From Parvularia atlantis (taxonomy: Eukaryota): a stretch of DNA of 32,252 bases. The translations under genes and the position numbers were made by a program. Shown here one piece after another: positions 548-29,032 of the stretch. The notes below the pieces were generated by a model. The model saw only the letters and a list, made by a program, of their open reading frames with translations, made no database searches and was not told the origin of the DNA. Numbering within the stretch: the stretch's first letter is position 1; the number at the start of each line of letters is the position of its first letter. The stretch covers positions 1 through 32,252 of the forward strand of contig CALSCO010000693.1 in the NCBI GenBank assembly GCA_943704415.1, read 5' to 3'.

Positions 548-845
548 CCGGCGGCCAAGCCTGCCAGCAGCACTCCGAGAGCCGGCATGCGAAGAGCATC
601 ACGTGCGCACAGCGGTGTTTTCTAGTCTCGCTTGCGCCCCAACGCAAACACGCGCTGTCCCCTTCGCCCGCCCTCGGCACGCCCACCGACCCCGCCGCCA
701 CCGCCACAGAGACCATGTGCGCGAAGGAGCTTGACGACCTGGACGCGCTCGTCGCGGGCCTGCAGGCGATGTCGCGGGTGCGTCGCATGCGCGTCTCGGA
801 TGCGTCTGTTTACGCGCCCGCTCCACCTCCGCGCGCGTCCCGCTC

Positions 846-3800
846 ATGAAACGCGCGACGACATGGGGCCCGCACTCGCCGCCGCCCGGCCCGCCGCCGC
901 CCGGCCCGCCGCCGCCGCCGCCCGCGTCCGTCGACGACCTGCTGCGACGGCTGCAGAGCGAGCAGAACTACGACTCGGACGACGACGACCCGTCCAAGAC
1001 GCTTGTCGCGCCGCCGCTGTCGGGCCCGCCGGTCGCGCCGCGGCGCAAGTCGGTCGACCAGGGCTCGGCCGCGCCGCCCGTGCCCACGTCGCGCCCGCCC
1101 CTCCCGCCCATGGGCACCAAGCCCGTCTCGCTCAGCATGGCCAACCTGCCCTCGGCCACGGGCAGCCCTGCCGGCAGCGTCCGCGGCGCCGCCCCGCGGC
1201 CGCCCCTGCCCGGGCACCTCCGCGCGCCCTCGTCCGGCACGATGACCTACCCGGTCAACACGGCGCTCAACCCGCCGCCGCCGCCGCCACCGCTGCCGCA
1301 GTCGCTCGCGCACGTGCAGCGCCCCGGCGGCGTGCCCCAGTCGACACCGCCACCGCCGCCGCCGCCCGTGGCCGGCGCGGGCCTGCCGCCGCCGCCGCCG
1401 CCGCCGCTGCCCTCCGCGGCCGCCGCGGGCTTCTCGGTCAACCCGCTGCTGCCCGAGCTGCCGCCGCCGCCGCCGTCGGACCTGCTGACGCTCATCGACA
1501 TGCCGCGGTCGGCGCAGGGCCAGCTGCACCAGCTGCAGGGCGGCGGCGCCGGCAGCACGCCGACGATCGCGCCGCAGATGCCGCTGCCGCCGACGCCGGT
1601 GGTGTCGCGCACCAAGCCCGGGACAACGCCGGCGGCGCGGGCGGCGAGCGCGCCGCGCGAGGACAAGCTCATGCTGACCGTGTCTAACCTGGACGGGACG
1701 ATCAAGAAGACGGTCGAGGCGACGCTGGACATGACCGGCCAGGACCTGAAGGCGCTCGTGGCGGGCAAGATGGGCCTGAACGGGCCCGAGTACTTTGGGC
1801 TGGCCCACGCGGGTCACGCCTTTGACAAGTTTGTGGACGCGGGCCGGACGCTGCGCGACCAGGACGTGCCGCGGCAGCTCGTGTTCAAGGTGCAGTACAT
1901 GAAGCAGCCGCGGGCGCTCAACAACGCGACGGCGATTGGGCTGTACTGGCTCCAAGTCAAGACGATGGTCGTGTCGGGTCTGTACCCGATCACCGACTAC
2001 CTCGGCGTCAAGTTGGGTGCGCTGCACCTGCAGGTCCACCACGGCGACTACAATGTCGGACGGCACACGACCGGCTTTCTGGCGTGCGTCCGGGGCGCGC
2101 GGGCGCATGCGCGCGGCTGGAGCGGGTGGAGCGGGCGCTGGTCGCAGCCGTCCCACTGCGCTCGCACGGCCCAACTGACGCCGTGGCCGCAGCACCCCCG
2201 ACGCGCTCAAGCCGTACTTGCCCCAGGCCCTGATCGAGCGCTACAAGCTGCAGTACTGGCAGCGCCGCCTGCTGGCGCAGTACTCGCGCTACCGCGGCCT
2301 GAGCGTGAGCGAGGCCCAGCTCGAGTACCTGCGCGTGGCGCGCAAGTCGCCGGCGTTTGGCGCGAGCATCTTCGAGGTGCGCGCGGGGGCCCACGCGCTC
2401 CTGGGCGTGGCCGAGGACGGCCTGCTCGTCAGCAGCAAGCGCAACTCGCTCTGCGGCGACTGGTCGTTCTTCCCGTTTGAGCAGCTGACGGCGTACAACC
2501 GGACCAACATCGGCATCATGTTCCAGACGAAGGACGTGGTCAACATGGGCATGCACGACGACGAGGCCGAGGCCGCCCTGAGCATCTTGCACGAGTACTA
2601 CTCGCTCTTCCGCGTCGCGCTCGACCCCAACTTTGTGCCGGACGTGATCCTCCCGCCCAAGGAGATGTTTGACCTACCGCCCAAGCGCATCATGCTCTCG
2701 AGCTTCCCCTCGCGCCTGGAGCTGTTCAAAGACGCGTACCAGCGCCACGTGGTTGAGGCCAACACCCGCCCGCTCCTGGCCGTGCTCGAGAAGATCGACG
2801 CCGACCTGGACGAGGGCCGCAACTGCGATGTGCTCGACCTCGACAGCGTCGACCTGACCGACGACCAGTGGCACCTCATCCGCAAGGCCCTCACCGACAC
2901 GTTTGCGTTCAAGCCCGCGGTCGGACAGGTGCGTGCCGCGTGCAACGGGCTCGGGCGATTCACGCCGCGCGCGCGTGCACAGGTCTTTGTTGAGAACTTT
3001 TCGGTCAACGAGCTGCGCATGTCCAACAACCCGCACCTGAGCGCGGCCGCGATCGAGTCGATGTGCGTTGCGCTCGCCGCACACCTCCCTTGCTGACCGC
3101 CGCGCGCGCGCGCCACGCCAGGGTGCCCCTGTTCAACACGTCGTTCCCCGCGCGCACGATCAACTTCTCCAACAACAGCAAATTCACCAAGGACCACTTC
3201 AAGGCGCTGTCGGGCCTGATGAACGGCGCGCGCCGGGTCGACTCGCTCGTCTTGCACGACACGGACTTGGGCGACCAAAACGCCCTTATGCTGCTCAAGA
3301 GCATCAAGACGAGCCTGATCTTCCGCACGCTCGACCTCGCGCGCACGGGCCTGACCGACGGCTTCTTCTTCCCGCTCGCGCTGATCATCCAGGGCCACCC
3401 GTCCCTGGCCGACCTCGACCTGGCCGGCAACGCGATCAGCGACGACGGCTGCACCAAGCTGGTCGAGGGTATCCGCTCGAGCCGGTCGATTGTGCGGCTC
3501 AACCTGACGTCGACGCGCGTGCGGTCGCACTCGATCAAGACCCTGCTCGACGTCATTGGCTTCCGCGGCCGGCCCAACCACCTCGAGGTGGCCAACACCA
3601 AGCTCTCGTTCAAGACCGCGATGAAGATCGCGTCGCTGCTCCAGCACAGCAGCACCACCAACAACAGCGTGGGCATGTCCGGGAGCCTGTTCTACCTGGA
3701 CGTGCACAACACGGGCCTGACCAAGAAGGGCGCCCTCGCGATCGCCGCTGCGCTCGACGGCAACAAGACGCTTGAGACGCTCGCGATCGGCGCCAACGAG

Positions 3801-4457
3801 CTCGACATGGACTTTGTGGCCGTGCTCGCGCGCGCCCTCGCCAACAACACCAAGCTCAAGATGCTCAGCGTGCGCAGCAGCAGCCTCGGCAGCGACGGCT
3901 ACGAGACCCTGGCGCGGCTCGTGCGCAGCAACACGACCCTGGTCGAGCTCGACTGCAGCAGCAACACGCTCAGCCAGGCCGACGTGCGCGCGCTCGCCGA
4001 GGCCCTCGCCTCCAACAAGACCCTCCAGACGCTCAACCTCAGCAGCTGCACCAAGGTTGGCGCCGAGGGCGTGGGCGCGCTTGTCGCGGCTGTCACGCGG
4101 CCCGGCAGCACCTCGGTCCTCGCCAAGCTCCTGCTCGACGGCTGCAACGTGGGCGATGCGGGCCTCAAGAAGATCGCCGAGGCGCTCGGGGCCGCCACCG
4201 GTGCGCTCGAGCACCTATCGCTGCGCGAGAACGCCATCACCACGGCCGGCCTCAAGGCTTTCGCGCCCGTGTTTGAGCGCAACACCAAGCTGCGCACGCT
4301 CATCTTTGACAAGAACCCGGCCGCGCTCCTCACCACCGGCGGCCCAGAGCTCTTCCAGCCGTTCTACGCGGCCGTGCTCAGCGGCCGCACGATCACGTGC
4401 GACGAGGACATCCGCGCGCTCGCCCAGGACGGCTCCAAGACGATCAAGAAGAAGTGA
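846..4457 (+). CDS. Proline-rich N-terminus + FERM domain + RNI-like leucine-rich repeats (FrmC/CARMIL-like architecture); introns 2084-2192, 2929-2982, 3063-3121
   Basis: Poly-Pro tracts, then FERM-like segments (EYFGLA; LYWLQVK..VVSGLYP; LGALHLQVHHGDY; AQLEYLRVARKSPAFGASIF). RNI-type LRRs follow (LADLDLAGNAISDDG, LQTLNLSSC, LEHLSLRENAI). Three GTGCG..CAG introns join ORFs 846, 2218 and 3063 in frame. The start is uncertain (see finding at 715). Confidence 0.85.
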
Positions 4458-4538
4458 GCGGGGCCGCCGTGAACTACTTCGCTTTTTTTTGTGCTTTCAC
4501 CCCCGGGGTAACGATCATTGGAACCGAGCGCGCGGTGC

Positions 4539-5204
4539 ATGTGGACGGTCGCATCGCACCCGGATCGCGGGCGGTACCTCGTGGCCGCGCGCGACGTCGA
4601 CGCGGGCGAGCTCGTCGTCGCAGCCGACTGTCCGCTGGCCTCAGTGTCGATCCACGACGACGACGACAACGACGAGACCGATCTCTACGTACGCCTCGCC
4701 CGCCGCGTCGAGGCGCGCATCCGCATCGACACGCACGCCCGCGCCCTCGTGCACGAGCTCTGCCCCGCCGGCGGCGACACCCTCGCACGCGTCCGCGCCA
4801 ACGCCTTTGGCGTCTACGCCCGCGACCCGCCCGGCCAGGTCGCCCTCGCGCTCTTCACCGGGCCGCTCGCCCTCCTCAACCACGCGTGCGCGCCGTCGTG
4901 CGCCCGCGCCGAGCCGTGGGGCAGCCCGGGCCTCGCCATCCGAGCGCTGCGGCGCGTCCCCGCCGGCGCCGAGCTCTCGCTGTCGTACATTGGGGCTGCG
5001 CGCCGCACGACGGCCGGCGAGCGCCGGGCGCAGCTGCGCGCGCACTGGGGCTTCGAGTGCGCCTGCGAGCGCTGCATCGCCGAGGACGCCGGCGCCGACG
5101 CCTCGCCCGAGCTGCCCGTCTGCGACCACGACGCCTGCGCCGGGTGGGTCGTGCGCGGCGCGTGCGTCTCGTGCGGCGCGGTCACGCCGTTGACCCGGAC
5201 ATAG
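4539..5204 (+). CDS. SET-domain (SMYD-like) lysine methyltransferase, single exon
   Basis: HPDRGRYLVAARDVDAGELV (SET-N), LLNHACAPSC, ALRRVPAGAELSLSYI and post-SET WGFECACERC. First ATG at 4539. Confidence 0.88.
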   Translation: MWTVASHPDRGRYLVAARDVDAGELVVAADCPLASVSIHDDDDNDETDLYVRLARRVEARIRIDTHARALVHELCPAGGDTLARVRANAFGVYARDPPGQVALALFTGPLALLNHACAPSCARAEPWGSPGLAIRALRRVPAGAELSLSYIGAARRTTAGERRAQLRAHWGFECACERCIAEDAGADASPELPVCDHDACAGWVVRGACVSCGAVTPLTRT

Positions 5205-5221
5205 GCGTTTCCCGCGCCGCT

Positions 5222-5232
5222 CTGCTGAGTGG
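5222..5232 (+). promoter_or_regulatory. A-box-like element in the leader of the permuted tRNA
   Basis: CTGCTGAGTGG matches the tRNA's own A box TGGCGGAGTGG (5290-5300) at 8 of 11 positions and ends 24 nt before the B box GGTTCGAATCC (5257-5267). Confidence 0.45.
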
Positions 5233-5234
5233 AG

Positions 5235-5319
5235 AGGTGTTCCCTTCGGGGGCGCAGGTTCGAATCCTGCCGTCGTCGTTGAGACGACGTGGCGGAGTGG
5301 TTAACGCGGCACCCTGCTA
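5235..5319 (+). tRNA. Circularly permuted tRNA-Ser(GCU): 3' half (nt 38-73) at 5235-5278, spacer TTGA at 5279-5282, 5' half (nt 1-37) at 5283-5319
   Basis: The re-joined halves fold into a full cloverleaf. Acceptor GACGACG/CGTCGTC with G73; D arm GCG-GAGTGGTTAA-CGC; anticodon stem GCACC/GGTGT with loop CT-GCT-A|A; long variable arm CCC-TTCG-GGG; T arm GCAGG-TTCGAAT-CCTGC. Confidence 0.9.
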
Positions 5320-5323
5320 TGAC

Positions 5324-5335
5324 TTTTCTTTTTTT
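5324..5335 (+). terminator. RNA polymerase III terminator (T4-C-T7)
   Basis: TTTTCTTTTTTT begins 5 nt after nt 37 of the tRNA 5' half, in otherwise very GC-rich DNA. Confidence 0.75.
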
Positions 5336-5487
5336 GCTACGTACCTACGGCGTGGTTAGTGCTCGATATCTAAATCAGATATACGTATGTTGCTCTTTTT
5401 TTTCCTCCTCACTGAGTCAGTGTCTTTCTTGCGCACTTCCATGCCGTGCGCACACACAGAGAGGCACACAGCTAAACCCAGACGCGC

Positions 5488-8400
5488 TTACTGCGCACTG
5501 ACGCTGTAGCACCGGAAGTAGCACACCTGCTGCCCGAGCCAGCCCGAGTAGTCGGTCGGGTCGACGACAAAGTCGTTCACCGTGACCGACGGCGCGAACG
5601 GGCAGCCGTACTCGCATGTAAGCGGGTCGCGCGACGTGATCCAGCCCTTGACCTGGCAGCAGTGCGTCTCGCCGGCGATCGTGACCGTAAAGCCCGTCGC
5701 GAGCTTGTCGGCCGAGGGCTGCATCCAGCAGTCGCGCTGGACGGGGCCGGGCGCCGACAGGCTGGTGCCGGTGCTGAAGCTGGCCGCGAGCGCGCCAGGC
5801 GGGGTGATAGTGAGGGCCTCCGAGCTGGCGATGGTCACGGTCGCGTCGATGCTCGGGTACAGCGTGTAGCAGCCGGCGTAGCACGGCGTGAAGAGGGCCT
5901 GCTCGACGAGGACGCAGGCCTCGGTCCACGTGTTGGTCGGGCAGCCCTGGAGCACGCAGCCGACGGGCCCGTCGACCAGGGGCGGCTGGTAGTTGCTCAG
6001 ACCCGTGCTGATGCAGCAGTAGACCGTCCCGTCCGCCGCCGTGACCTTCTTGCCCGAGCGCGCGCCCACGTCCGCGCTAAACGCGAAGCACTCGTCGCCG
6101 GGCTCGGGCTCGCTGCCGGGCGTGGGCGAGTTGAGGCGCTCACCGGTGTAGACGTGGTTATAGTACGGGCCTAGGCGAGCATGGCGTGCGCGCGAGTGAG
6201 CGAGGCGTGCGCGGGGAAGGGGAAAGCAAGGCACGCACCGGTCACGTTGAGCGGGGCGCCACCGCACGCAATCAGGCCAGGGCCCCCCACGGTCAGGACG
6301 GCGGGGCCGTAGATGCCGCGTGTGGCCGGGCACGAGAGCAGCGTGTCCGAGATGCGCGTCGCCTGGGTGCTGGCCACGCCGAGAAAGCCGCCGTCAAAGA
6401 CACACTTGAGCGTGATGTCTTCGACGAAGCCCGAGCCATAGATGGTCAGCGTCTCGTCAAACTGGGCCAGCAGCGGGCTCAGGCCGGTGACGACGGTGCA
6501 GACGGGCGTAGGCGTCGCCGTGGCCGTGGCCGACTGGGTATAGCTGTCCGTGGCGCTCTGCGTGAAGCTGTCCGTCGCCGACTGCGTGCTCGACTGGGTG
6601 TAGCTGGCCGTCTCCAACTGGGTGTAGCTCGCGGTCGCCGACTGTGTCGCCGAGCCGGTCGCTGACTTGGTCGCCGAGCCGGTCGCTGACTGGGTCGCCG
6701 ACTGGGTGTAGCTGGCTGTCGCACTCTGCGTGAACGACTGGGTGAACGTGTCCTGGTCCGTGCTCGTCGCCGATTGGGTGTAGCTCGCCGTCGCACTCTG
6801 CGTGAAGCTTGCGGTCACACTCTGCGTGAAGCTCGCGGTGGGGCTCTGCGTGAAGCTCGCGGTCACACTCTGCGTGAAGCTCGCCGTCGGGCTCTGCGTG
6901 AAGCTCGCTGTTGCCGACTGCGTGAAGCTCGCGGTCGACGATCGCGTCACCGACTGGGTGAAGCTCGCGGTCGCCGACTGGGTGAGGCTCGCTGTGGCCG
7001 ACTGGGTGAAGCTCGCGGTCGCCGACTGGGTGAGGCTCGCTGTGGCCGACTGGGTGAAGCTCGCGGTCGCCGACTGGGTGAAGCTCGCGGTGGCCGACCG
7101 CGTGAAGCTGGCGGTGGCAGACTGCGTGGAGCTGGCGGTGGCCGACTGCGTCCAGGTCTTGACCGGCGTGGGCGTGGGCGTGACGGCATCTGCGAGCGCG
7201 CAGGGCAAACGTCAGCGGGCGCACACGAGAGAGCGCCACGCACAGGTGAAGTTGGACGGGACAGGCGTGCACGACGACGAACCGCGCTGGATGGACAGCG
7301 ACGGCGACGAGAGGGGCGACAGTGCGGGCACGGTGCACGTCAGCTGGAAGTCGGTCACGGCCGTGGCGGGCGACGAGACCGTGCCCAGCAGGCTGTCGGT
7401 GAACAGGCACGAGATCGTGAAGCCGTCGTAGTAGAACGCGCCGTACACGGTCAGTTTCGTGCCCTGCACGCCCGACGCCGGGCTGACCGCGATCACCGTG
7501 GGGCACTTGGTCAGGTCCACTGAGCAGTCCGAGCCAGTGTAGTTGGCGAAGCACGAGCACGTGTTGGTCGCCACGCACGTCCCGTGCAGGCTGCAGCCCG
7601 TCTCGCACACGGGCCTGGTCGTCGTGGTCACGCTCGAGTTGCTGAACGCGCACATGTCGGCCAAGCCCTGGATCGCGGCCGCCACGAACGTCGTTGTGCC
7701 CGTGTCCGAGCCCAGCAGGTAGTCCTCCACGCACGCCAGCAGCTCCTCGATCGGGTCGTAGCCGCTGGCGCGGCACAGGTCGATCAGCGGTCCCATCGTC
7801 TGGTTGCAGACGGTCCAGGCCGGCAGCGTGTTGTTCGGGTAGGTGATGTCCGGGCGGGTAGAGTTGTACGGCGGCGACGACGGTGCCGTCTGGTTCTCTG
7901 CACGCACGGGTGGCGCCGCCGCGCCCACGTCAGTCGACGCCAGCGAGACCAAGCAGCGCTCAGAACGCACTAGAGCCGTTGATCACGTCGTTGGTGATGT
8001 CGACGACGGTGCTGTTGGGCGACTTGGGCAGGTCAGCGGGGATCGGATTGGCCGGCACGTTGGGCGGGGTGCATGTCAGCTGGGGCGGAGGGCTGCACGT
8101 GGCGTTGACCGCGCCCGCGGCCGTGCTCGTCGGGCACGACTCGCCGCTCGTCCAGAACGCGCTGAGAGGCTCAAACGTCGCGCTCGAGTTGTAAAACATG
8201 CTCTTGGCCAGGGGCACCTGGCGTGCTGGTCAGCACGCCAGCCCGCAAGCGCTGCCGGGCGGGGCGCACCAGCATTGCTTGCGCAAACGGGGAAAGGTCG
8301 TCGTGGCCGATGCCGTTGTGCAGGTTGAGACCCGTCGCAAGCGTGCCGTTGAAGAGCGTAAACTCGTTCTTGTTGTTGCCGTCGGGCGTGCCGCAGATGC

Positions 8401-10010
8401 CAATGCCGCTACCGCCGCGCACGCCGCTCTGGCACCCGGCACTGAACGCGGACGGGGCCTTGACGCGCGTGTTCTGCACGTGCGGCTCAGACCGCGCGCA
8501 CAACCTGCAGCAGCGCTTGATACGCACCAGCAGCCACGTCGACTCCTCGCCGTGGTACTGCACGCGCACGTGCACTTCCAGCCCGTCCGCGTACGAGAAC
8601 AGGTAGTTGCGGTGGTTGACCTGGCGGATCTTGAGCCCCGCGACGTTGTTGAGCGGCGCGTCCACCCAGAGCACGGGGATGCGGCTCGTCACGACGATGA
8701 TCACGGTTGTGTCGTACTCGCGGATGGCCACGCCGTGCGGGCACGAGACCTTGTTGCACGGGCCGAGGCGCATCTGTGCGCGCACGCTCAGCGTCGCGCC
8801 GCGTCGCGCGCGCTCGGGGCAGCCTGCCCCACGCACCTGCACGACGACGTTGCCGCTCGGCTGGTAGTAGGCATAGTAGTCTCCGCCCGTGTAGAAGTTG
8901 AATTGGACGTGGTCGAACGTGGCAAAGTGCGGGTCGCCGTAGTACGTGCACACGAGGCCACCCCAGCCCTTGTTGCCAGTCGACGTTGACGTGAACACGT
9001 CACTAGCAAGTGGCACGCGTTAGTAGGGCCGGGCTGAGCGCAACCGCAGCCAGCCGTCCGCCCCCGCCAGCCAAACAGCCGCGCGCAAAGCCCCCCATGG
9101 CCAGCGGACGCACGTGTTGCTTGTGCCAAACGTGACCGTGCTGTAGAGCTGGTAGAACACGTTGTCGAGGGTGCTCGCGGCATTCGAGACGGTCGCATTG
9201 AGGATGAGCGGGAAGATCATGTTGTGGCCCGGGTACACGGTCACCTGGCGTGCGGTGAGCAGCCGGGTGGCGTGTCCGCATTGACGCGCACCGGCACGCT
9301 CGTGTTCCAGTTGGCCGTGGTGAAGACCAGGTTGCAGACTGAGAGCTCGAACGGCTGCGTGGTCGAGTTGGTGCGGAAACTGACGGTGATGTTGCCGTTG
9401 GGCGCGGTCGCAAGCGAGACGCGGAAGGTCGCGCAAGCGCCGTCGACGACGAGGGTGGGCGAGCTGACAACAATGCCGATGCACTTGCCACCCGACAGGA
9501 CGTAGCCGGGCGCGCAGGCCGTGCACGTGGTCGCGGAGGAGCACTCGGTGCAGCCGGTGCAGACGCGCGCGCACTCTGCGTGCCGGTCAGCAAACCGCGC
9601 CACCAGCAGAAAAATTGCGCGCGCGCCAAGACCAAGCAACGCACTCAGGCATGCGCCGGTCAGCGTCGTAAAGTCCCAGTAGCAGCCGTTGGCGACGCAC
9701 GCCGTCTGACTCGGCGCCTTGGTGCAGTCAAGTGTGCACACGTTCTTGTTGCTCGAGCCCGAGAAGTAGAAGCCCGCAGGGCAGCCCACCTGCGCCGTGG
9801 CGCCGCAGTTGGTCGACGTCGGCCAGTTCAGGGTCGCGTCGCCGCAGGGGTACTCAAGCTGCATCGGCGCGGAGGCGAAAGTTAAGGTGCCGCGGCAGGG
9901 GCAGGCAGGGGCGCGCGCACCGTCGGGCACTGGCACGGCACGGCATGGCTCGGGCGCGCGAGGACCGCCAAGGCGGCGGCGACGAAAACCAAGATGGCCG
10001 CGAACTGCAT
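5488..10010 (-). CDS. Large secreted multidomain protein (~1289 aa, 11 exons): signal peptide, Cys-rich/furin-like, vWF type D, EGF, two IPT/TIG domains flanking a Thr/Ser repeat, two C-terminal Cys-rich repeats
   Basis: Signal peptide MQFAAILVFVAAALAVLARPSHA; furin-like CTGCTECSSATTCTACAPGY; vWD CTYYGDPHFATFD and GICGTPDGNNKNEF; EGF CSLHGTCVATNTCSCFANYTGSDC; IPT PTVIAVSPASG..GTKLTVYG and VTGLSP..TLTIYGSGF. Ten introns (9920-9859, 9644-9576, 9291-9245, 9113-9003, 8836-8774, 8527-8474, 8269-8218, 7970-7898, 7243-7190, 6238-6171) leave a 3870-nt open frame. Confidence 0.85.
6521..7154 (-). repeat. Coding tandem repeat, 24-bp unit with 12-bp sub-period, encoding (F/Y/L)TQSATAS
   Basis: About 25 degenerate units such as GACTGGGTGAAGCTCGCGGTCGCC on the + strand, in frame within the secreted protein. 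Confidence 0.93.
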
Positions 10011-10664: not shown

Positions 10665-13600
10665 ATGCCCGCGAAGCGTGACAGACAACGTGACGGCGCG
10701 CCAAACGAGGAGCCATCGCCCGGGCCGTGCTGCCCGTGTGGTGCGCCCGTGGCGGCGGGCGGGGCCGCACCGGATGTCTGCGCGCGCTGCGGCCTGGCAG
10801 TGCACCGCGAATGCTGCGCCGCGCCGGGCCGCTGCTGGTGGTGCGGCGACAAGGACGGCGACGACGGCGCTGTTCGCGCGCGGTTTGCCAGCGCGGCTTT
10901 GCCGGCGGACGCGGAGCGGGGCCGGCTCGTGCGCGCGCGGCAGGACGCGGTGTTGCTAGCGTGGCGTGACGGCGGCAAGCGGCTGCACCCGGAGCCCGTG
11001 TGGCGGCGCGCGCTGCCGCGGCGGCCGAGTGCGCTCGAGGAGCTGGCGGCGGTGCTGAGCGCGGCGCGGCGGGCGCGTGTGGACGTGGTGGACAATGAAG
11101 TGCACTTGCGCCTGCTGCCGGGTGGCACGCGAGCCGCGGGCGCGATGCGCGAGCTCATTGGGCGCCTGTGGCCCGCGCCCGGCGCTGCGCATGCCGCGCC
11201 GGCCGACAACGACCGCCTGTGCGAGCTGTCGGCCGCAATTGGCGCGACCGACGAGGCGCCGCAGCCGCCCGGGCTGGCCTGCACGCTGTATCCGTTTCAG
11301 CGGCGTGCACTGCACTGGATGCTTGAGCGCGAGCGCGCCGACACGGCGCTTATGCCGGATCCTCGCTGGGAACGCGTGCCTTTGGAGATCGACGGCGGCG
11401 GCGCCTACGTGGACCGCCTGCACGGCCTCGTGAGCCTGCACGAGCCGCCGGCCGTCGCACTCGCCCGTGGAGGCATCCTCGCCGAGGAGATGGGTCTCGG
11501 CAAGACCGTTGAGCTGCTCGCGCTTGTCCTTGCGCACCCGGCGCCGCCTGGCGTGGCCGGCGCGACGCTGATCGCCACGCCGGCCGCGATCGCGCAACAG
11601 TGGGCGGGCGAGATCACGCGGCATGCGCCTGGCCTGCGCGTGCACGTCTACCGCGGCCTGGCTAGCAGCACGCGGCCATACCCGCTGTCGCCCGCGCAGC
11701 TCGCCGCCGACTTTGACGTCGTCCTGGCGACGTACGAGGTGCTGCGGGCCGAGCTGGTGTACGCGCGCGAGCCGCCACCGCGGCAGCTGCGCGCGCGCGA
11801 CAGCGCCGATCCGACCGGGCCGCCGCCGCCGCCGCGGTACCTGTCGCCGCTGACGCAGCTCGTGTTTTGGCGCGTTTGCCTGGACGAGGCCCAGATGATC
11901 GAGACGCCTACGGCCAAGTCGGCCGAGATGGTGCGCGAGCTGGTCGCGGTCCACCGCTGGGCGATCACGGGCACGCCGATCGGCCGGCGCGGCTTGGATG
12001 ACCTGTACGGGCTGTACCTATTTCTGCGCCAGGAGTCGCTGGCCGAGCGCGCGACGTTCCAACACGTGGCCGCGCGCGACCTCGTCACCCCGGCCGACGA
12101 CCGCAGCGCGCGGCTCTGGGCGCGCACGCTCTGGCGCGCCGCCAGACGCCTCGTTGGCCGCGAGCTCGACCTGCCCGAGCAGCGCCAGCACACCGCCACG
12201 CTCGAGTTTGAACCGTTTGAGCGCTTCAACTACAACCTCCTGCGCGAGCAGTGCCGCGAGGCGGCCGCGGCCGGCCGCGACGATGACGCCCTGCTGCCGC
12301 TGTTTCTGCGCCTGCGCCAGACGTGCTGCCATCCGCAGGTGGGCGAGCGCAACCAGCGCCTCTTTGGCGACAAGCCCCTGCCCATGGTCGACGTTCTGCA
12401 GATCCGCCGCCGCGTGCTCGTCAACGAGCGCGCCTCGGCCAAGCGCCAGCTCTGCGGCACCCAGCTGCGCCGCGGCCTCATGCTCGAGCGCCGCCAGCCG
12501 CCCGACCTGGCCGCCGTGCTCGACATCTACACAGCGCAGCTGGAGCTCGTGCGCGCCGAGGTCGACGCCAGCGCGCGAGCCCTGTCGGCGGCGGCCGACG
12601 CGAGCAGCGCCGGCGATGCCGATGACTCGGTCGAGGAGATGTCGTGGCGCCAGTGGCTCGAGCTCGAGCACCGCGTGCGCTTCCTGATCGCCTCGGTGCA
12701 CCTCGAGCAGGGCCTCGAGCAGCTGGCCAAGGGCGAGTTTGACGCGGCCGACCGTGTGCGCGCGCAGATCATGCGCGTGGTCGAGCAGCGCGCGCAGGGC
12801 GTGCTGACCGACGCCGGCGCGGCCGCGCCCGTACTGCCCAAGCCGATCGACGCCGACGCGGACGTGCTCCTGCTCGGCGGCCTGCTCAGCGCGCTCGCGT
12901 ACGAGCGCGTCCGCACCACGGTCAGCGACCTCAGCAGCACCATGGTCCGCCTGGGCGAGCTCTTCGCGGCCGCGCGCAAGCTCATCGTGCCCAAGGGCGG
13001 CGAGCTGCACCAGCAGTACGAGCGCGACGCCGAGGTCCAGGGCGAGATCGACCAGCTGTTCAACGACATGGACGACATGCTCCAGCTGCACGAGGTCCTC
13101 CTCACGGGCTACACGGGTGAGTCGCGCTGGCGGCACCGGCACCGCGCCATGGTCGAGCAGACGCTCGTGGCCGTGCGCGAGCGCGCCCTGGCCGAGGCGG
13201 CGAGCGCGCGCCTGGCCGCGATCGTGCAGCAGCACACGGCCGCGCACAAGGCCCTGCGACAGGAGCGCCTGCGCCTCGGCCGCTTCGACAACGCGCGCAT
13301 CTCCTTCTACCGCCAGCTGCAGCGCCTGTCGGACAACGTCGCGCACCCAGAGCTGCCGCCCGAGCAGACGCCCGAGGGCGAGCTCGCGCTCCTGGCAGAG
13401 CGCGAGCCAGGCGAGCGCACGCGGATTGAGACGCTCGAGGGCCGGCTGCGGTACCTGGACACGCTGCTGGCCGCGAACGTCAGCGGCCAGACGCCGCTGC
13501 ACGCCGCTGCACCCGAGCACCTGTGCCCGGTCTGCCACCAGGCGATCGGCCACCGCGGCCTGCTGACGGTCTGCAACCACCTGTTCTGCCACTGCGTGCT

Positions 13601-14276
13601 GCACTGGACCAACGTGCACCTGCGCTGCCCGACGTGCAAGCACCCGATCGCGCGCGGCATGGTCGACTTTCGCGAGATCTCGATGCTCGCGCCCGCGCAG
13701 CCGCTGGGTCAGGCGGTCAAGGCCACGCCGATCAAGGGCAGCTGGGGCACAAAGCTCGACGCGATCGTGCGCCACCTCTGCGCGCTCGAGGCGGACCGCG
13801 ACAAGGCCATCGTCTTCTCGCAATGGGACCAAGTGCTCGCGATCTTGGGCGAGGTGCGCTCCTTCGTCCGCTATGGCCGCCCGCGGCCCGTCCTCACCGG
13901 CTCGCAGGCCCTCGCGCAGAACGACGTGGCGCACGCCAACGCGAGCCAGGTCGACCGCTTCCGCGCCGACCCGAGCCTGCCCGTGCTCCTGCTCAACACG
14001 CGCAAGCAGTCGAGCGGGCTCACCCTCATCGCGGCCACGCACGTCGTCCTGGTCGAGCCCGTGCTCAACCCGGCCATGGAGCAGCAGGCGATGCACCGCG
14101 TTCACCGCATCGGCCAGACGCGCACGACGCACGTCTGGCGCTTCCTGATCGGGGGCACAGTCGAGCCGCTGATCCACCAGCACGCGCGCACACACACGGC
14201 CGCGGCGGACCTGGGCGTGCGCTCGCTGGACGAGCACGTGAGCGCGGCCGACGTGCGGCGCTTTGCCGAGCTGTAG
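10665..14276 (+). CDS. SHPRH: SHPRH/Irc20-like SNF2 helicase-RING E3 ligase with an N-terminal PHD-like finger; intron 13854-13907
   Basis: LYPFQRRALHWMLERE, GGILAEEMGLGKTVE, FWRVCLDEAQMIE, RWAITGTPI, LRLRQTCCHPQ, RING CPVC..CNHLFCHC..CPTC, GSWGTKLDAIV, KAIVFSQW, EPVLNPAMEQQAMHRVHRIGQ. In-frame 54-nt intron. Confidence 0.88.
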   Translation: MPAKRDRQRDGAPNEEPSPGPCCPCGAPVAAGGAAPDVCARCGLAVHRECCAAPGRCWWCGDKDGDDGAVRARFASAALPADAERGRLVRARQDAVLLAWRDGGKRLHPEPVWRRALPRRPSALEELAAVLSAARRARVDVVDNEVHLRLLPGGTRAAGAMRELIGRLWPAPGAAHAAPADNDRLCELSAAIGATDEAPQPPGLACTLYPFQRRALHWMLERERADTALMPDPRWERVPLEIDGGGAYVDRLHGLVSLHEPPAVALARGGILAEEMGLGKTVELLALVLAHPAPPGVAGATLIATPAAIAQQWAGEITRHAPGLRVHVYRGLASSTRPYPLSPAQLAADFDVVLATYEVLRAELVYAREPPPRQLRARDSADPTGPPPPPRYLSPLTQLVFWRVCLDEAQMIETPTAKSAEMVRELVAVHRWAITGTPIGRRGLDDLYGLYLFLRQESLAERATFQHVAARDLVTPADDRSARLWARTLWRAARRLVGRELDLPEQRQHTATLEFEPFERFNYNLLREQCREAAAAGRDDDALLPLFLRLRQTCCHPQVGERNQRLFGDKPLPMVDVLQIRRRVLVNERASAKRQLCGTQLRRGLMLERRQPPDLAAVLDIYTAQLELVRAEVDASARALSAAADASSAGDADDSVEEMSWRQWLELEHRVRFLIASVHLEQGLEQLAKGEFDAADRVRAQIMRVVEQRAQGVLTDAGAAAPVLPKPIDADADVLLLGGLLSALAYERVRTTVSDLSSTMVRLGELFAAARKLIVPKGGELHQQYERDAEVQGEIDQLFNDMDDMLQLHEVLLTGYTGESRWRHRHRAMVEQTLVAVRERALAEAASARLAAIVQQHTAAHKALRQERLRLGRFDNARISFYRQLQRLSDNVAHPELPPEQTPEGELALLAEREPGERTRIETLEGRLRYLDTLLAANVSGQTPLHAAAPEHLCPVCHQAIGHRGLLTVCNHLFCHCVLHWTNVHLRCPTCKHPIARGMVDFREISMLAPAQPLGQAVKATPIKGSWGTKLDAIVRHLCALEADRDKAIVFSQWDQVLAILGEVRSFVRYGRPRPVLTGSQALAQNDVAHANASQVDRFRADPSLPVLLLNTRKQSSGLTLIAATHVVLVEPVLNPAMEQQAMHRVHRIGQTRTTHVWRFLIGGTVEPLIHQHARTHTAAADLGVRSLDEHVSAADVRRFAEL

Positions 14277-15882: not shown

Positions 15883-18025
15883 ATGATCGAGTACCTCGTC
15901 GTGTGCCAGCGGCGCGCTGTGCGCCGCCTCGCGCACGACAAGCCCGACGTCGACGTGGTCTTCATGGACGAGGTCGTGCAGGGCTTCCGGCTGTACATCG
16001 TGCAGCAGTGGGTGACCGACCGCGCGCACTTCCTCAAGTCGGTCGCGACGTACACGGCCAACCAGGCGCACACGGTGCGCGCTCCGTGTCCCCCTGCCAC
16101 ATCGGCCGCGCACGCATCGCTCAGTGCGCACACCTGTGTGCAGATGCTCGTCGACGTGGTCAAGTTTGACCCGGGGACGTTTGAGCGGTGTGCCGCGCGT
16201 GTGGGCGACGCAGCCGCGTGCGACGGCCTGACGCCGCGTGCGCCAGCTACCTCGGCAGCGCGCGGTCCGACCACATGCGTCCGATGAAGATCGCCCTCGG
16301 CGACATCCTCGTGACAAACCTGAGCCGCCTGCCGCCGCACCTCAACCTGATCGAGGTGCCCGAGGGCGACTTTGACCGGGCGATGGCCAGCGTCGTGCTC
16401 TCGATCAACCTGCGCCGGCTCGGGTGCAGCGGACGCACGACCGTGTCGCTGCGCTACCCGGCCGAGGCGCGCGACAAGTTCACGAGCCTGTACCGGGTCT
16501 CGCCCAACGTCCCGTTCGACTACGCCGTGAACGAGCTCGTGCGCCTGGCGCAGCGCGCGCTCACCTGCTTTGACCTGCTCCCGCCCGACGTCACCGACGG
16601 CCTCCTCTGCGACCAGACGCAGCGCGCGCTGCGGCAGTACGCGGCCGAGTACACCGTGCAGACGCCCGAGGAGGCCGCGGCCGAGGAGATGCTGCAATAC
16701 ACGCGCGTGTTTGCGCACCTGTTCAGCTCAATGCAAGTCGCACGGCACATGCTCCACGCCGCGGGCGTGCTCACGCCCAAGGACCCGTACCAGGACGTGG
16801 GCGCGTTCCGCAAGAGCGTCGCGGCGTTCCAGGAGGGCCACGGGCTCGAGCCGACGGGCGCGCTTAGCAGGGCGCTGCTGGCGAGCCTCGCGGCCGTGTC
16901 GTCGAGCTCGGCCCTGCTCAAGGCCAAGAGCACCAAGGACAGCGAGGTCGCGACCAAGCCCACGGAGGACCTCGAGTTGTACGTGCACGCGACCACGGTC
17001 GACCGCCTGCGCTACCTCTGGACGGGCACGGGCGGCAAGGCGTTTCTGGGCGACAGCGAGGACGCGGGCGCGGCCGAGGCCCTGGCGGGGACGCGCGCAG
17101 ACGGCGCCGCGCGCCTGGGCAAGTCGATCAAGGAGCTGATGATCAAACCCATCGACGGCGCCATCACCACCACGGTCGACGGCCTCAAGGACGCTTACAA
17201 GGGCATGAAGAACACGCCCTCAAACATCGCCCAGTCGCTCAAGGTGCTCAAGCTCCCGCGCGACCGCGGCAAGTCGGATCTGCCCTCGCCGGGCATCGGC
17301 GCGAGCCCGCCGCTCATCTCGCCCGCGGCCCCGACCGGCCCCGCCGCCGCGCCTGTGCCGCCCTCGCCGCCATCGACGTTCGCGCACGGCAGCGGCAAAC
17401 ACGAACGCACACAGCGCGCGCATGCCGAGTACCGCCTGGGCGCGGCCGACATCGATGAGGCGCTCGAGGTCCTGACGACGCAGGAGGACGTGTTCACGGG
17501 GCGAATGGACGAGCTGCGCAAGCTCGAGATGCTGTACGAGACGCAGATCGACGCGCTGCAGCGGCTGTGCGAGGAGCGGACGCAGGCGGTGAAGGAGCAG
17601 GACGAGCTGCTGCGGACGGCGCAGGGCCACATTGACGGGCTGCTGCGTGAGGTCGAGCGCATGGACACGACCAAGTCGATGCTGCAGTACCAGGTCTCCG
17701 TGTGCGAGGACAAGCTGGTCGAGGCGCAGGAGCTGATTGACAACTACACGAGCATCGTGCGCGGCCGGACCACTCGCCCGCGCGCCGCCTGACCCCGCGC
17801 CGCGGCGCGCAGATGGCCACGCTCGAGGCGTCCGTCTACGCCAGCGTGTCGTTCCGGCTGTCGCAGCGCATGCTCGGCGTCGGGCGCGCGATCCGGGCGC
17901 GGTTGCGCGCCTTCCTGGGCGAGATCGCCGCCGCGCCTCTGCCCGGACCGTCGGGCACCATGCCCGGGGCGTTGGCTGCCGGCGCCGCCGACCCCAGGGA
18001 CGCCGTGCCAGCACCGCCCTCATGA
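15883..18025 (+). CDS. STB6/STB2-like (Sin3-binding, STB6_N) protein with C-terminal coiled coil; introns 16075-16143, 16188-16246, 17757-17812
   Basis: GFRLYIVQQWVTDR, VTNLSRLPPHLNLIEVPEGD, INLRRLGCSGR, DGLLCDQT and LRYLWTG resemble fungal Stb2/Stb6 N-terminal motifs as I recall them. The three introns keep the frame. Confidence 0.75.
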
Positions 18026-22764: not shown

Positions 22765-24285
22765 TCACTGTTGCGTGCATTCGCTGACCGCCTGGCGGTT
22801 GACAACGACGTGCTTGGCAGGGGCCGGGCCGGACGCGGGGACGGCGGCGACACGCGCGACGGCCGGCTGCGACGTCGTGGCCGGCTTCGGCGATGGGGCG
22901 GCCGTCACGACCTCGTTCTCCTTGTTGGCGCGCGGCGGCCGCGGCGGCGGCGGCGGCGAGGGCGCGGGCTGCTCGGCCAGCTTGTCGGCGCTGCTCTCGG
23001 CCCCGGCGCCCGACAGTTGGAAGCGCAGGCTCGCGATCGTTCGGTTGGCGCGACTCAGCTGCGCCTCGGCCTCCTGCAGCCGCCGCTCGGTCTGGTACAG
23101 CCGCTCGGTCTCGCTCGCCTTAAGCATGGTCGCCGTGCGCAGCTCACGCTTGACCCGGGCGAGCTCATCCGTGGTCTCGTGCAGCTGCTGCGTTAGCGCG
23201 GCCACCGAGCCTGCCTCGGACAAGGGCACCGCCGCCGCGGCGCCGTCGGCCCGGCCCGCGCCCGCACCGCCGCGGCACGTGCACTCGTCCACGCGCTCGC
23301 GCAGCACGCGCACCTGCTCCTGCAGCTGCTTGCCCTCGGCGATGCTCTGGGCCAGGCGCGATTCGAGCTGGCGCTGCGACAGCTCGAGGCGCTCGTTGCC
23401 GCTGTTCTGCGTCAGCTGCTGGATGCGGCTGCGCAGGCGGCGCTGCTCCAGCAAGTGTGTCTGCAGCAGGCCCTGGTGCTTCTCCTGCAGCGTGTTGTGG
23501 CGCGTCTCGAGGTCGAGCCGCCGGTCCTCGATCTCGGACAGGAGGCTCTTGCCGTCCTCGTGCCCGGGCAGGTGGCCCACGCGGCTCTCGGCCTGCACCG
23601 CGCGCTGCAGGAAGTCGACAGTGGCGCGCGCATCGCTCAGCGCCAGGTTGAGCTCGTCCACTTGGAACTGGAACGCCTCCTTCTCGCGGCGCTCCTGGTC
23701 CAGCTGCGCCGAGAGGTCCTCGAAGATGGCCGCGTCGCCCTGCGCCTGCTGCACCTGCTCCTCGAGCCGCGCGCACCGGTACTCGAGCGCCACTCGCTCC
23801 GTCTGCCACGTCTGCTGCTCGCGGCGCAGCGACGCCACTGATGCCTCGTACGACGCCACGAGCTGGCCGGCCTGCTGCTCGGCGGCGCGTGCCTCGCGCA
23901 GCTCGGCAATGAGCTTGGCGCGCGCCTCTTGCGCCACGGCGGCCTCGGCCTCGAGCTCGGCGGCACGAGCCTCGGCCTGCAGCACGGCCTCGTTTGACGC
24001 GCGCACGCCGTCGCTCGCGGCTGCGTTCTCGCGTTCGCGCGCCCGCAGCGCGTCGTGCAGCCGCGCGATGTCGGCGTCGAGGGCCGCGCGCTCGTTGTCG
24101 TTGCGCTCGCGCTCGCCGGCCAGGGCGCGCTGCGCGTCGTCCCAGCGACGCTGCGCCGCGGCCAGGGCCTCCTTGAGCCGCGCATTGTCGTCCAGCAGCT
24201 GCTGACCCATCTGGGCGGCCAGCAGCAGATCGTGCTGCAGCTCGGCGACCGTCGGCTCCATGAACGCGTAACGGTCTTTGTGCAT
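22765..24285 (-). CDS. SPDL1: Spindly-like kinetochore dynein adaptor (start 24285 or 24261)
   Basis: Long coiled coil with CC1 box LLLAAQMGQQLL, Spindly motif GKSLLSEIEDRR (human GNSLFAEVEDRR) and C-terminal CTQQ (human CPQQ, farnesylated). Confidence 0.8.
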   Translation of the reverse strand: MHKDRYAFMEPTVAELQHDLLLAAQMGQQLLDDNARLKEALAAAQRRWDDAQRALAGERERNDNERAALDADIARLHDALRARERENAAASDGVRASNEAVLQAEARAAELEAEAAVAQEARAKLIAELREARAAEQQAGQLVASYEASVASLRREQQTWQTERVALEYRCARLEEQVQQAQGDAAIFEDLSAQLDQERREKEAFQFQVDELNLALSDARATVDFLQRAVQAESRVGHLPGHEDGKSLLSEIEDRRLDLETRHNTLQEKHQGLLQTHLLEQRRLRSRIQQLTQNSGNERLELSQRQLESRLAQSIAEGKQLQEQVRVLRERVDECTCRGGAGAGRADGAAAAVPLSEAGSVAALTQQLHETTDELARVKRELRTATMLKASETERLYQTERRLQEAEAQLSRANRTIASLRFQLSGAGAESSADKLAEQPAPSPPPPPRPPRANKENEVVTAAPSPKPATTSQPAVARVAAVPASGPAPAKHVVVNRQAVSECTQQ

Positions 24286-25454: not shown

Positions 25455-28400
25455 TCACAGCGGCGCGTTGCGCACAATGTCCAGCAGGCACGCCGCGTTG
25501 TGAAACGCGTCCATCAGTCGCCGCGTGCTCCGCTGCTCGGCCGCGCGCAGCTCGCGCAGCAGCTCGCCCAGGCCCGGCGTCGCACCGAGCAGCTCGCCGT
25601 GCACGTGCAGAAACACCTGCAGGTACGCCTGGATCATCTCAAAGTTGCGCTGCGAGTCAAGCTGCCGCAGCAGGAACCGCGCAAAGTGGCCCAGCAGCGG
25701 CTGCGCAGGGTCGAGCGTCTCGAGCGAGCGGATCGCAGCGTCGGTGGCCGATGGCCCGAGCGACAGTAGGTGCTCGAGCAGCGCGTCGTCTGTCGCGCCC
25801 GGCCCTCATCAGCGTTCCCGCCGTCCCGCGCAGCCGCCCACGAGTACGCACACTTATCGCTCTCGGCACAGCGCTTCAGCAGTGCGTTTGTCGACGACTC
25901 GGCTTCACGCATCACGCTGTCCTTGATGATCGCGCTCTGCGTGCGCGCACCACAGTGTCACCGGCAGCGGAGCGCGTGCACGTGGCCCGCACCTTGCGTT
26001 CGGCTGTGGTCTCTTGATCGGGCGCGAAGGCCGTGCGCACGCCGGCGACCGTCGGCAGGAAGAAGGGCGCTGTGTCGAGACGCGCACATGAGCGCGTCCG
26101 GACTCCGCGCCCCATCGGCACGCACCGCGCTCGGGCGCCCTGGGCGGTTCGATCGGCTTGTTGCGCGCGCGAATGGCCTCGAGGCTGAGCAGGTTCTGCC
26201 AGCGCGTTTTGGGCAGGGCTGACAGTGAGATCAGCCCGTTCACCGGCAGCAACGTGTCCGCCGACGTCTGCTCGTCGACCGTGCCTGCCGGTGCAGTCGG
26301 CGCGTCGGCGGGGTGGTCGACGAAGAACGAGTCGTCGTCGACGCCGTTGACCCCGGGCAGCTCGAGCGCGACGGCCGCACCCGACGCAACGCCCGTGTCC
26401 GGCTCGAGCGACTGCACGGGCACAAGCGGGATGCTCGAGAACTGCAGCCGATTGGCCCAGAGAAACACACCGACGTGGTCGACGTGGCACGTCGCGAGAA
26501 AGTCGGCCGAGGGCGAGAACGCGACCGAGGTCGGGATGGCCGGCACGACAAAGACGTCGACCAGGTGCGACGTCGGCAGGTCCCACACGCGCACGGTCGC
26601 GTCCATGCCGCACGTGACGAGCAGGCGCGCGTCAGGCGAGAACGCCAGGTCGGTGACGCGGCTCATGTGGCCGCGGAAGACGCGCACGACCTTGGCCGTG
26701 TCGATGTCGATCACACGCACGGCCAGGTCGTCGCCGACGACAGCCACGAGGTCGCTCTGAGCCGCGCCGTCAGCACCCGCGCACAGACATGCACGGGTGC
26801 GCACGCACATCGCGTAGCAGCGTCAGCGCCGTCAGGCCGCAGCCGATGTTGTGCGAGTGCTGTATCCTCGCGTCGTTGAAGTCCCACACGCACACGGTCC
26901 CGTCCAGCGAGCACGACACGAGGCGCTGGTTCAGGCCGTCGACCGCCAGCCCCATCACCGCCTTGGTGTGCCCTGGCGGCGCGCCAGCGTGAGAACTCTG
27001 TATCCGCGGCGTGCTGTGCCGTGCGCGCACCCTTGAACACGCGCCGGTGCGCGCCCGACTGGAGGTTGTACATGTCGCAGCGGCCGGACGCGTAGCCGAC
27101 GACGGTGAAGTTGCCGCACGTGCTAATGCAGCAGGCCTGTTGCGCGCGCGACAACGTTCACGCCCTGGTCGCACGGGCAGAGGCAAGTCGGCTAGAAGGG
27201 GCACCTTGGGAAAGCTCCCGTCGAGCGACTTGAGCTCGTGACGGCCGATGGTCTTGTTGAGGTAGCGCCAGGTGTGGACGGTCGCGTGCTGGTGATGGCA
27301 CGTGACGATGTTGTCCCACTCCTTCTCCTTGGCTTCGGCTGCCAACGCGTGCGTTAGTGGGCGGCGAGCGCATGCATGCCCTGCCACGCACAGGCCGCGA
27401 AGCACGTGATCACCGGCAGCTTGAGCTGCTCGACCTTGAGCCCCGTCACGCGCACCTTCTTGGCCAGCGAGCCCTGCGACAGCTCAACCGACTGCGCGTC
27501 GCGTACGATCGAGAGGTCGCGCAGGGCCCGGTCGGCGCCGCTCGACAGCAGATGCGACCCCGTTGTGCCCTGCGCGCGGCACGCGTAAACAAGCGGTCGC
27601 AGGCCGTCCGCTGGGGTGCCGCGACGCACGTAGAAGCGCACGCAGGTCGGCGGCTTGGCGTGCCCGCTGCGCGACTTGAGCAGGCGGCCCGAGCCGTCTG
27701 CCGCGTCAAAGATCCATTGCTGCCGTGACGCAGGCACGGTCAGGGGCCCATCGTGCGCGCGCACGGCCGCGCGCACCTTGACCGAGTTGTCCGACGACGC
27801 CGACATGAGCAGCGGCTCGCCCGGGAAGAACACGAGCGACGAGACCGAGCCGTCGTGCGCCCCGGCCATCAGGTGGCTCAGCTGGCGGTGCTCCATGTCC
27901 CACAGCGCAATGTCGCCGAGCGAGTTGGCCGTGGCCATGACGGGCGTCTCGTCGCTGCGGAACGCCACGGCGGTGACGGCGCCCTCCTGGCGCACGGCCA
28001 TGACGCGCTCGCCGTGCAGGATGTCATACAGCACGATTGTGCCGTCGAGCAGCCCCACAGCGACGACGTCGGGCGCGGGGCTCGGCACGAGGCACGTCAC
28101 GGCCCCGCCCACGCTGTCAAACTCGTGCACGAGTTTGCTGCCGCGGAGCAGTCAGTCTTGCATGACCTGCGCAGCGCAGCACAGCGCAGCGCACCTTGTG
28201 CGGATGTTCCACAACTGCAGCGTGCCGAACGACGTGCCCACGAGGATCTTGTTGAGGTACGTGGCCGGGTGGCACAGCGCCGTGACGCGGAAGCGCGCGC
28301 CAAACTCGATCGCGCCCTCGAGTGCCGCAGCGCTGTCGCGCGCGCCCAGTTTCCACGTGCACAGCGTGTTGTCCTCGTCCAGCGACAACACGAGGTCACC

Positions 28401-28984
28401 CACGCGCAACAGCTGCAGCACGGTCGAGCGGTGCGGCCCGGCCATGACGTTGCGCTGCGCGAGCCGACGCGTGAGCCCCGCGTCTTTCGCGCGTCCCGTT
28501 GGCGCACCAGCCTCGCGCGCTCAAAGACGAGCACTTCGTTGCCGCACGCCGCGACGGTCAGGTCGCCCGCGCTAGCGAGCGCCGTGATCGGCCGCGTCGT
28601 GTGCGGGCCGACAAAGAGCAGGCCGAGCTTGCCGCACTGCGCGGCGGTCTGCGTGAGCACTGGGGCAACGACGGCCAAGCAGCGAGGGCGCACCTCGTAG
28701 ATCTGGAAGCTGTTGCCGGTGCATGTCGTGACAAAGTGCATCCCGCCGCGCGTCTGCAGCGAGAACGGGACGTCGTTCGTGACGCAGCCGAGCGCGCGGA
28801 ACGGCTGAAAGATGCGCGAGGCGCGGAGCAGGGCTGCACAAGCTTCAGCAACCACAGGCGCAAAAAGCGCTGCCCCGCACACGCCACCTCGCCGCACGGG
28901 CTGGTCCGTCGCGGGCTCAGACGCAGGCGCAGGCGCAGGCGCAGGCGCAGACAAGGCGCCGCGCCGCCGCTTGTTCGCGGGCAT
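25455..28984 (-). CDS. UTP21: U3 snoRNA-associated protein 21 / WDR36 (at least 12 introns)
   Basis: [86 protein letters not shown] and [12 protein letters not shown]. Intron donors at 28693, 28507, 28194, 27776, 27629, 27391, 27204, 27030, 26808, 26125, 25992 and 25851. Confidence 0.95.
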
Positions 28985-28987
28985 GGT

Positions 28988-29032
28988 GGCCACGTGGCGC
29001 GTCGGATCTGTCACGCTTCGGCGGCCACGTGG
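28988..29032. promoter_or_regulatory. Two GGCCACGTGG E-boxes in the 51-bp UTP21/glycerol kinase divergent spacer
   Basis: Identical 10-mers at 28988-28997 and 29023-29032, each containing the palindrome CCACGTGG. Confidence 0.45.

Follow-up and report, generated by a model that had tools for sequence, protein, structure and literature searches.

A circularly permuted tRNA-Ser(GCU) gene in a GC-rich contig of a likely opisthokont

Within the window (the whole 32,252-nucleotide stretch of DNA analysed here), the two halves of a tRNA-Ser(GCU) lie in reverse order, which raises the questions of whether they form a single gene able to yield a mature tRNA, in what kind of organism this gene resides and how it might have arisen. 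We classify the locus as a circularly permuted tRNA-Ser(GCU) gene of type II (37/38). Our overall reading, which we hold to be probable, is that of a likely functional gene in a GC-rich, intron-rich opisthokont that is likely either non-fungal or a very early holomycotan. It should be noted that the locus is known as one copy in one contig.

Gene layout, detection and related loci

On the plus strand, the locus runs from the 3' half (5235..5278) through a 4-nt spacer (5279..5282) and the 5' half (5283..5319) into runs of T. The sequence, together with ARAGORN on the re-ordered halves, identifies the 3' half as tRNA positions 38-73: it begins with A38 (5235) and continues with the 3' strand of the anticodon stem (5236-5240), a 13-nt variable region made of a 3-bp stem and a UUCG loop, the T arm (5254-5270), with a B box at 5257-5267, and the 3' strand of the acceptor stem (5271-5277), ending in the discriminator G73 (5278) with no CCA encoded. 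The intervening 4 nt close the acceptor stem, as seen in the sequence and in precursor folds. The 5' half, likewise recognised from the sequence and by ARAGORN, supplies positions 1-37, namely the 5' acceptor strand, U8, the D arm with its A box (5290-5300) and the anticodon stem, with the anticodon GCU (5316-5318) set within C32-U33-GCU-A37.

The initial annotation had claimed this order of halves, a break at 37/38 and a Ser(GCU) identity, and its coordinates proved exact and its stems sound when re-checked. The re-joined molecule is also as intact as was claimed, with 7/7 pairs in the acceptor stem, 5/5 in the T stem and 5/5 in the anticodon stem (one G.U) and a D stem of 3 bp in the ARAGORN cloverleaf. 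Eukaryotic tRNA-Ser identity goes with G73 and a long variable arm, and serine class II features are present here (G73, long variable arm, GCU anticodon and 7-nt loop). The role of the variable arm in tRNA-Ser is stated in PMC3978253. The halves meet at A37 (5319) and A38 (5235), i.e., at the 37/38 junction; formally, this junction can be shifted by one base either way, but the neighbouring registers give G37 or U38, and 37/38 alone gives the usual A37-A38. The locus does not consist of adjacent complete tRNA genes, as there is no normal gene nearby and upstream just a possible decayed partial 5' exon. Thus the earlier statement that no matching 5' half lies upstream holds for an intact copy, but it overlooked a decayed resemblance at 5209-5226 (13/18 identical), while its companion statement that no 3' half lies downstream was borne out, no 3' exon remnant being found next to the locus on that side.

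ARAGORN reported 0 tRNA genes in the window as written, in line with the earlier remark that standard tRNA scanners would miss the gene. Scoring of the re-ordered halves had been suggested along with that remark; with ARAGORN they are called as tRNA-Ser(GCT) with a score of 121.0, inside the natural range of 117.3-122.2 (29 Ser(GCT) calls, partly redundant, in the loci fetched). A search pattern written for the permuted arrangement gave one match in the window and matched 0/100 shuffles. When the window was doubled and scanned with scoring, the best match was this locus (114.2) and no match was left once it was masked; the same scan on 100 shuffles reached a maximum of 110.6, with some weak match in 43/100, and the unscored version of the scan is unspecific (matches in 6/15 shuffles). 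The permuted Ser(GCU) gene is therefore real and not a product of chance. At a relaxed threshold (80%), ARAGORN made 86 calls, which were dismissed as noise. An Rfam search of 3000-8000 gave nothing of note beyond a chance mir-22 match, and a match of the 5' half alone to NsiR1 was also judged to be chance.

Pattern scans for relatives of the window locus found none among metagenome, viral and prokaryote loci. The 28 metagenome loci comprise 27 with tandem normal Ser genes (3 of them cut by a contig end) and one that is permuted (L008); the seven viral loci comprise six tandem and one permuted (L033); and among four prokaryote loci two are tandem, one is ambiguous and one lacks a tRNA. L008, at 854-942 of a metagenome contig of 1214 nt, is a type II permuted tRNA-Ser(GCU) gene with an 8-nt spacer, an evident bulge-helix-bulge-like motif whose outer helix measures 10 bp, and an AT-rich upstream region. 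L033 (978-1062, in an IMG/VR contig named as a giant-virus MAG) is of the same type and identity, with a 4-nt spacer, a re-ordered score of 117.6 and a leader and trailer that are able to pair; it heads a tRNA cluster in which Leu-UAA, Arg and Met follow. A Leu-UAA gene lies 3' of the permuted gene in both, and L008 probably derives from a giant virus related to that of L033, judging from their sequences. The remaining loci of the series L001-L030 are tandem Ser(UGA or AGA)-Ser(GCU) pairs with spacers of 4-25 nt, mostly on AT-rich contigs and in two cases in giant-virus MAGs; such Ser-Ser pairs are an arrangement that could give rise to a permuted gene. As a separate observation, in a Kapaibacteriota MAG contig (L036, ~1001-1076, minus strand) a D arm and a GCU anticodon come after a T arm, and no normal tRNA was called there. 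The re-ordered score of this element is 105.8, splice-register pairing is absent, and it is possibly a permuted tRNA-like element or mimic.

Transcription and maturation

Maturation through a circular intermediate is, in our analysis, the most likely route for this gene. On the model of the algal genes, RNA polymerase III would transcribe the leader, 3' half, spacer, 5' half and trailer, stopping at the T-run, and the halves would fold into a cloverleaf in which a small loop closes the acceptor stem and positions 32-36 are paired with leader bases -3 to -7. The cell's ordinary splicing endonuclease would then cut at 37/+1 and -1/38, treating leader and trailer like an intron, and a ligase would join 37 to 38 into a circle, from which RNase P and tRNase Z would excise the 4-nt spacer before CCA is added.

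Several features of the leader are consistent with this route. Bases -7 to -3 (5228..5232) pair with positions 36-32 in 5/5 cases (two G.U), a fit that 1.3% of the 5-mers in the window achieve by chance. The pair C32:G-3 is an anticodon-intron pair, of the kind that PMC3978253 describes as being read by the yeast/eukaryotic splicing endonuclease. According to the same source, algal type II genes carry a relaxed motif at 37/38, which suits the eukaryotic endonuclease, and mature via a circle. The junction here could form a relaxed bulge-helix motif, with 5/5 pairs in the central helix and no convincing outer helix. In both L008 and L033, leader bases -4..-7 pair 4/4 with positions 33-36, in the same register as in the window gene.

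Folding predictions (ViennaRNA) are less favourable to the splice-ready form, which lies 4-18 kcal/mol above the minimum with P(31:39) of 0-0.11, and a competing leader hairpin (5217-5232) sequesters the splice-pairing bases. The L008 precursor, by comparison, forms its motif (0.8) and that of L033 does so in part (0.36-0.49). This objection is weakened, however, because in the control the mature molecule misfolds too (0.01) and 6/23 natural Ser(GCU) sequences have P(31:39) <=0.1. The most stable element in the precursor folds is the acceptor hairpin closed by the small loop, with P(1:72) of 0.84-0.98.

The question of a promoter arises because the A and B boxes stand in reversed order, the A box (5290-5300) being 3' of the B box (5257-5267), and there is no TATA box: no TATA-like word occurs in the 120 nt upstream of the gene, a region that is largely the end of a SET-domain gene (4539..5204, plus strand; Pfam PF00856) whose stop codon lies 30 nt before the 3' half. 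The leader contains an A-box-like stretch (5222..5232, plus strand), 35 nt before the B box, that is a candidate substitute promoter element. It is identical to the gene's own D arm at 8/11 positions and lacks the first two bases of the consensus (T8 and R9); with one free position, the A-box-like 9-mer occurs in the window solely in this stretch and in the gene's own D arm. Since there is no TATA box upstream, the B box together with this leader stretch is the likely, if weakly supported, promoter, and we prefer it to the alternative that the tRNA is released from read-through of the SET gene. In algae, an upstream TATA element is considered to drive the permuted genes (PMC3978253), and promoter elements located in a removed 5' leader are described for yeast RNase P RNA (PMC5095917).

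Behind the 5' half, the trailer (5320..5335, plus strand) consists of 4 nt followed by T4-C-T7 (T-runs at 5324-5335), a candidate Pol III terminator. The T-run noted in the initial annotation is thus present, but it is weaker evidence than was implied, because T-runs also follow protein genes in the window: there are four runs of at least 7 T, two of which follow other protein genes. Two of the four lie behind the SET gene, which would be sufficient for it and the tRNA gene to have one each.

Host placement, origin and rival explanations

The window has 70% GC and many short introns, and its Pfam content comprises FERM-LRR, SET, EGF/VWD, SNF2, lipase, WDR36, glycerol kinase-family, acyl carrier and MBOAT genes. 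Two of these were placed in phylogenies, which narrow the opisthokont-like host of the initial annotation to the fungal side. The WDR36/Utp21 gene (25455..28990, minus strand, ends approximate), which has many short introns, clusters with fungi (100/98) but falls outside the 11 that were sampled (97/97) in a tree that used 20 of 120 matches and a protein pieced together from exons on an animal reference. The tree was repeated on this reference because a gene model from a fungal reference, which had given the same shape in a first tree, could bias the placement. Likewise, the SHPRH/IRC20-type SNF2 helicase (10665..14276, plus strand), which is without the insertion of animal and plant SHPRH, groups with the fungal IRC20 type and three further rows (100/97), outside nine fungi (100/99) and apart from animal, plant and Trebouxia rows (23 of 120 matches used). 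Both are single-gene trees with composition warnings on the window rows, and their samples are without named nucleariids, rozellids, aphelids, apusomonads, amoebozoans and unicellular holozoans. The best named matches of both proteins are fungi, and because these reach just 35-50% there is no close named relative on record.

Other genes serve as further host markers. For an STB6-like reading frame (16185..17792, plus strand), 12/12 named relatives among the 20 looked up are fungal, and a further relative is P0242 (69%). An intronless reading frame (22765..24261, minus strand) appears to encode a Spindly-like dynein adaptor, a coiled-coil protein with a terminal CAAX-type box, CTQQ (cysteine at -4): its top three atlas clusters are Spindly, at 0.95 with 152-166 shared features (guide value 170), and Pfam and PDB searches of it gave no match. 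It may also resemble proteins with a CC1-box and Spindly-motif and is a useful lineage marker. Spindly is inferred to have originated at the base of Obazoa (PMC10630089; PMC5579357).

The window also encodes a FERM and leucine-rich-repeat protein with a proline-rich N-terminus (754-4457, plus strand), for which the sole relative found was P0121 (1122 aa, 66%) and the atlas gave generic LRR clusters. FERM domains are scarce in fungi, and the gene is unusual for a host on the fungal side. An amoebozoan host, our first guess from this gene, was dropped, as three other markers speak for a place near fungi. A large intron-rich gene at about 5490-10100 (minus strand) probably encodes a secreted protein with VWD/EGF/TIG-like parts and a long Thr/Ser-rich repeat, and genes of the FERM and EGF/VWD/TIG kinds would be in keeping with a nucleariid-like amoeba, to judge from the account in 10.1101/2023.12.07.570557. 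At about 21200-22500 (minus strand) lies an intron-broken multi-pass membrane protein that looks 7TM receptor-like by eye and has no Pfam match. We place the host in Obazoa with high confidence and, with somewhat less assurance, in Holomycota; it is likely near fungi and outside the sampled fungi, and so not among algae.

A need for the product is suggested by codon usage: four window genes use AGC more often than any other serine codon (63/128), so the host should require a Ser(GCU) tRNA. How the gene arose may be recorded next to it. The stretch at 5209..5226 (plus strand), a possible decayed copy of 5'-exon positions 20-36, ends 8 nt before A38, and the first three bases of the trailer equal bases 5226-5228. 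In an anchored test allowing intron lengths of up to 20 or 40, a match as good was found at 4 or 16 of 1593 background anchors and in 23 or 30 of the 2000 shuffles (a post hoc p of about 0.003-0.015, the match having been seen before the test was designed), and by plain unanchored local alignment the resemblance is non-significant (332/3175 windows as good, p about 0.1). The stretch is therefore only a possible fossil of the 5' exon of an upstream duplicate. If it is real, the locus has the state predicted by the tandem-duplication model, in which the duplication of a tRNA gene that contains an intron, followed by loss of the outer exons, produces a permuted gene (PMC3978253). In our reading, the gene likely arose in this lineage from an intron-containing Ser(GCU) gene duplicated in tandem, and 5209-5226 would be what remains of the lost outer exons. 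Erosion is confined to the outer halves, which are ~30% diverged or undetectable beside intact inner ones, and this contrast would point to purifying selection on the tRNA product.

A dead relic is an unlikely explanation of the locus, in which two neighbouring Ser(GCU) copies are decaying, their inner halves survive by chance and a normal gene elsewhere supplies the tRNA. The possible upstream 5'-exon remnant, the missing TATA box, the unfavoured precursor fold and the single observation would all suit it; however, the inner halves have kept all their stems and invariant bases and their score is that of living genes, in contrast to outer halves that are either about 30% diverged or lost, and both breaks fall at the splice position, with a leader that retains the splice-register pairing. 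The intactness of the anticodon loop on both sides of the break supports a functional gene. An assembly artefact would mean that normal Ser genes in a tandem array had been collapsed or wrongly joined, and tandem Ser genes with 4-25 nt spacers do match the same search pattern (27/28 metagenome and 2/2 viral loci). We consider this very improbable: by reasoning, collapse of an array would produce a normal gene unless both of its ends fell at 37/38, the unique flanks of the locus start exactly at 37/38, the leader pairs in the splice register, and the gene on either side is intact and of the same GC-rich style.

There is equally little to be said for an unspliced tRNA mimic, working as transcribed in the manner of the tRNA-like domain of a YrlA Y RNA or as a mascRNA-like 3'-end element of the SET mRNA that tRNA enzymes would cleave. 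The loop-closed acceptor stem is indeed the most stable element, YrlA is the best Rfam match in 5200-5340, and the element begins 30 nt after the SET stop codon. Yet the YrlA match reaches 18.6 bits against a threshold of 69, covers model positions 27-81 of 114 without the closing stem and consists of the T, acceptor and D arms, as expected for any permuted tRNA, and the mascRNA score is 12.1 against 42.5; a mimic, moreover, would have no use for a full anticodon loop that is divided exactly at 37/38, for G73 or for a serine-type variable arm. Import of a functional gene from a giant virus or alga, with the same processing and another origin, is also highly unlikely in our view. It is brought to mind by the permuted type II Ser(GCU) genes of the giant-virus MAG (L033, with its 4-nt spacer), of the similar cluster in L008 and of Micromonas pusilla. 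Import from L008 or L033 is not indicated, because the window gene is no closer to them than to normal genes: its mature sequence is identical to theirs at 55-57/81 positions and to normal Ser(GCU) genes at up to 59, whereas L008 and L033 share 69/81 with each other. No viral genes were recognised among the window Pfam matches, and the possible local duplicate remnant suggests an origin in place.

We therefore return to the likely functional gene of the opening. As a bolder extension of that reading, which we put forward tentatively and regard as possible without thinking it likely, this gene could be the first of the permuted kind to work in the animal-fungal supergroup, of independent origin in a relative of fungi and with that origin still to be seen. 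Its leader would be the eroded upstream 5' exon and intron, acting both as the partner in splicing and in place of an A box, which would bring back the A-then-B order, so that standard TFIIIC and splicing machinery could express the gene without a TATA box.

Comparison with known permuted tRNA genes

PMC3978253 counts 34 permuted genes, from C. merolae, four prasinophytes, the B. natans nucleomorph and T. pendens. The entries in the initial list of known cases stand, but it omitted Bathycoccus, the viruses BpV1/BpV2 and Auxenochlorella: PMC3673656 describes a permuted tRNA in Bathycoccus and in both viruses, and PMC12633428 one in Auxenochlorella. In a 2026 review, permuted tRNAs are mentioned for algae and archaea only (PMC13578239). 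No report of an opisthokont permuted tRNA gene was found among the papers listed in literature searches, although supplements of genome papers could hold unadvertised cases. The kind of gene is already known, since Table 1 of PMC3978253 includes a type II permuted Ser(GCT) gene of Micromonas pusilla; what this one adds is its likely host lineage, a spacer of unusual shortness, the lack of a TATA box and a possible trace of origin.

The reviews, which limit permuted tRNA genes to a small number of algae and a single archaeon, leave open whether these are an ancient relic or of repeated origin (PMC3978253, PMC13578239), and a case near fungi with a possible duplication trace supports repeated, recent origin. 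The case also suggests that ordinary opisthokont enzymes can process a permuted gene, which is directly testable in yeast, and that tRNA sets of protist genomes and MAGs obtained with standard scanners may miss essential genes.

With YrlA (Rfam RF02553), the locus has in common a T arm, a loop-closed acceptor stem and a D arm in permuted order, but it scores far below threshold, has no Ro-binding stem and retains the full anticodon loop and splice register. The permuted iMet and Tyr genes of Thermofilum pendens share the permuted order and very short spacers (1 and 7 nt), whereas they are archaeal, have their junction at 59/60, encode CCA and carry an extra intron (PMC3218864). The cases in BpV1/BpV2 and Auxenochlorella share the permuted order and are missed by standard scanners, their hosts being an algal virus and a green alga (PMC3673656, PMC12633428). 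Cyanidioschyzon merolae, with types I-IV, has in common the layout and the proposed circle pathway, and six of its genes are type II; it differs in having upstream TATA boxes, no recognisable TFC1/TFC3 and junctions at several positions, and no permuted Ser gene is listed for it in PMC3978253.

The closest parallels lie in the Mamiellophyceae, for which type II permuted genes are described in Ostreococcus, Micromonas and Bathycoccus (PMC3978253, PMC3673656), and in the nucleomorph of Bigelowiella natans, with permuted Ser(AGA) and Ser(CGA) genes (PMC3978253). The 3' half coming first, the 37/38 junction, a class II serine tRNA, no encoded CCA and a T-run are common to these and the window gene, which may share the relaxed motif as well. 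In contrast, the window gene has no AT-rich or TATA-like upstream region and lies 30 nt behind a protein gene, and its 4-nt spacer compares with 5-64 nt in those genes (PMC3978253) and 5-85 nt in algal permuted genes (PMC3218864), making it shorter than any eukaryotic spacer given in these two sources. Finally, its host is likely not an alga but an opisthokont near fungi.
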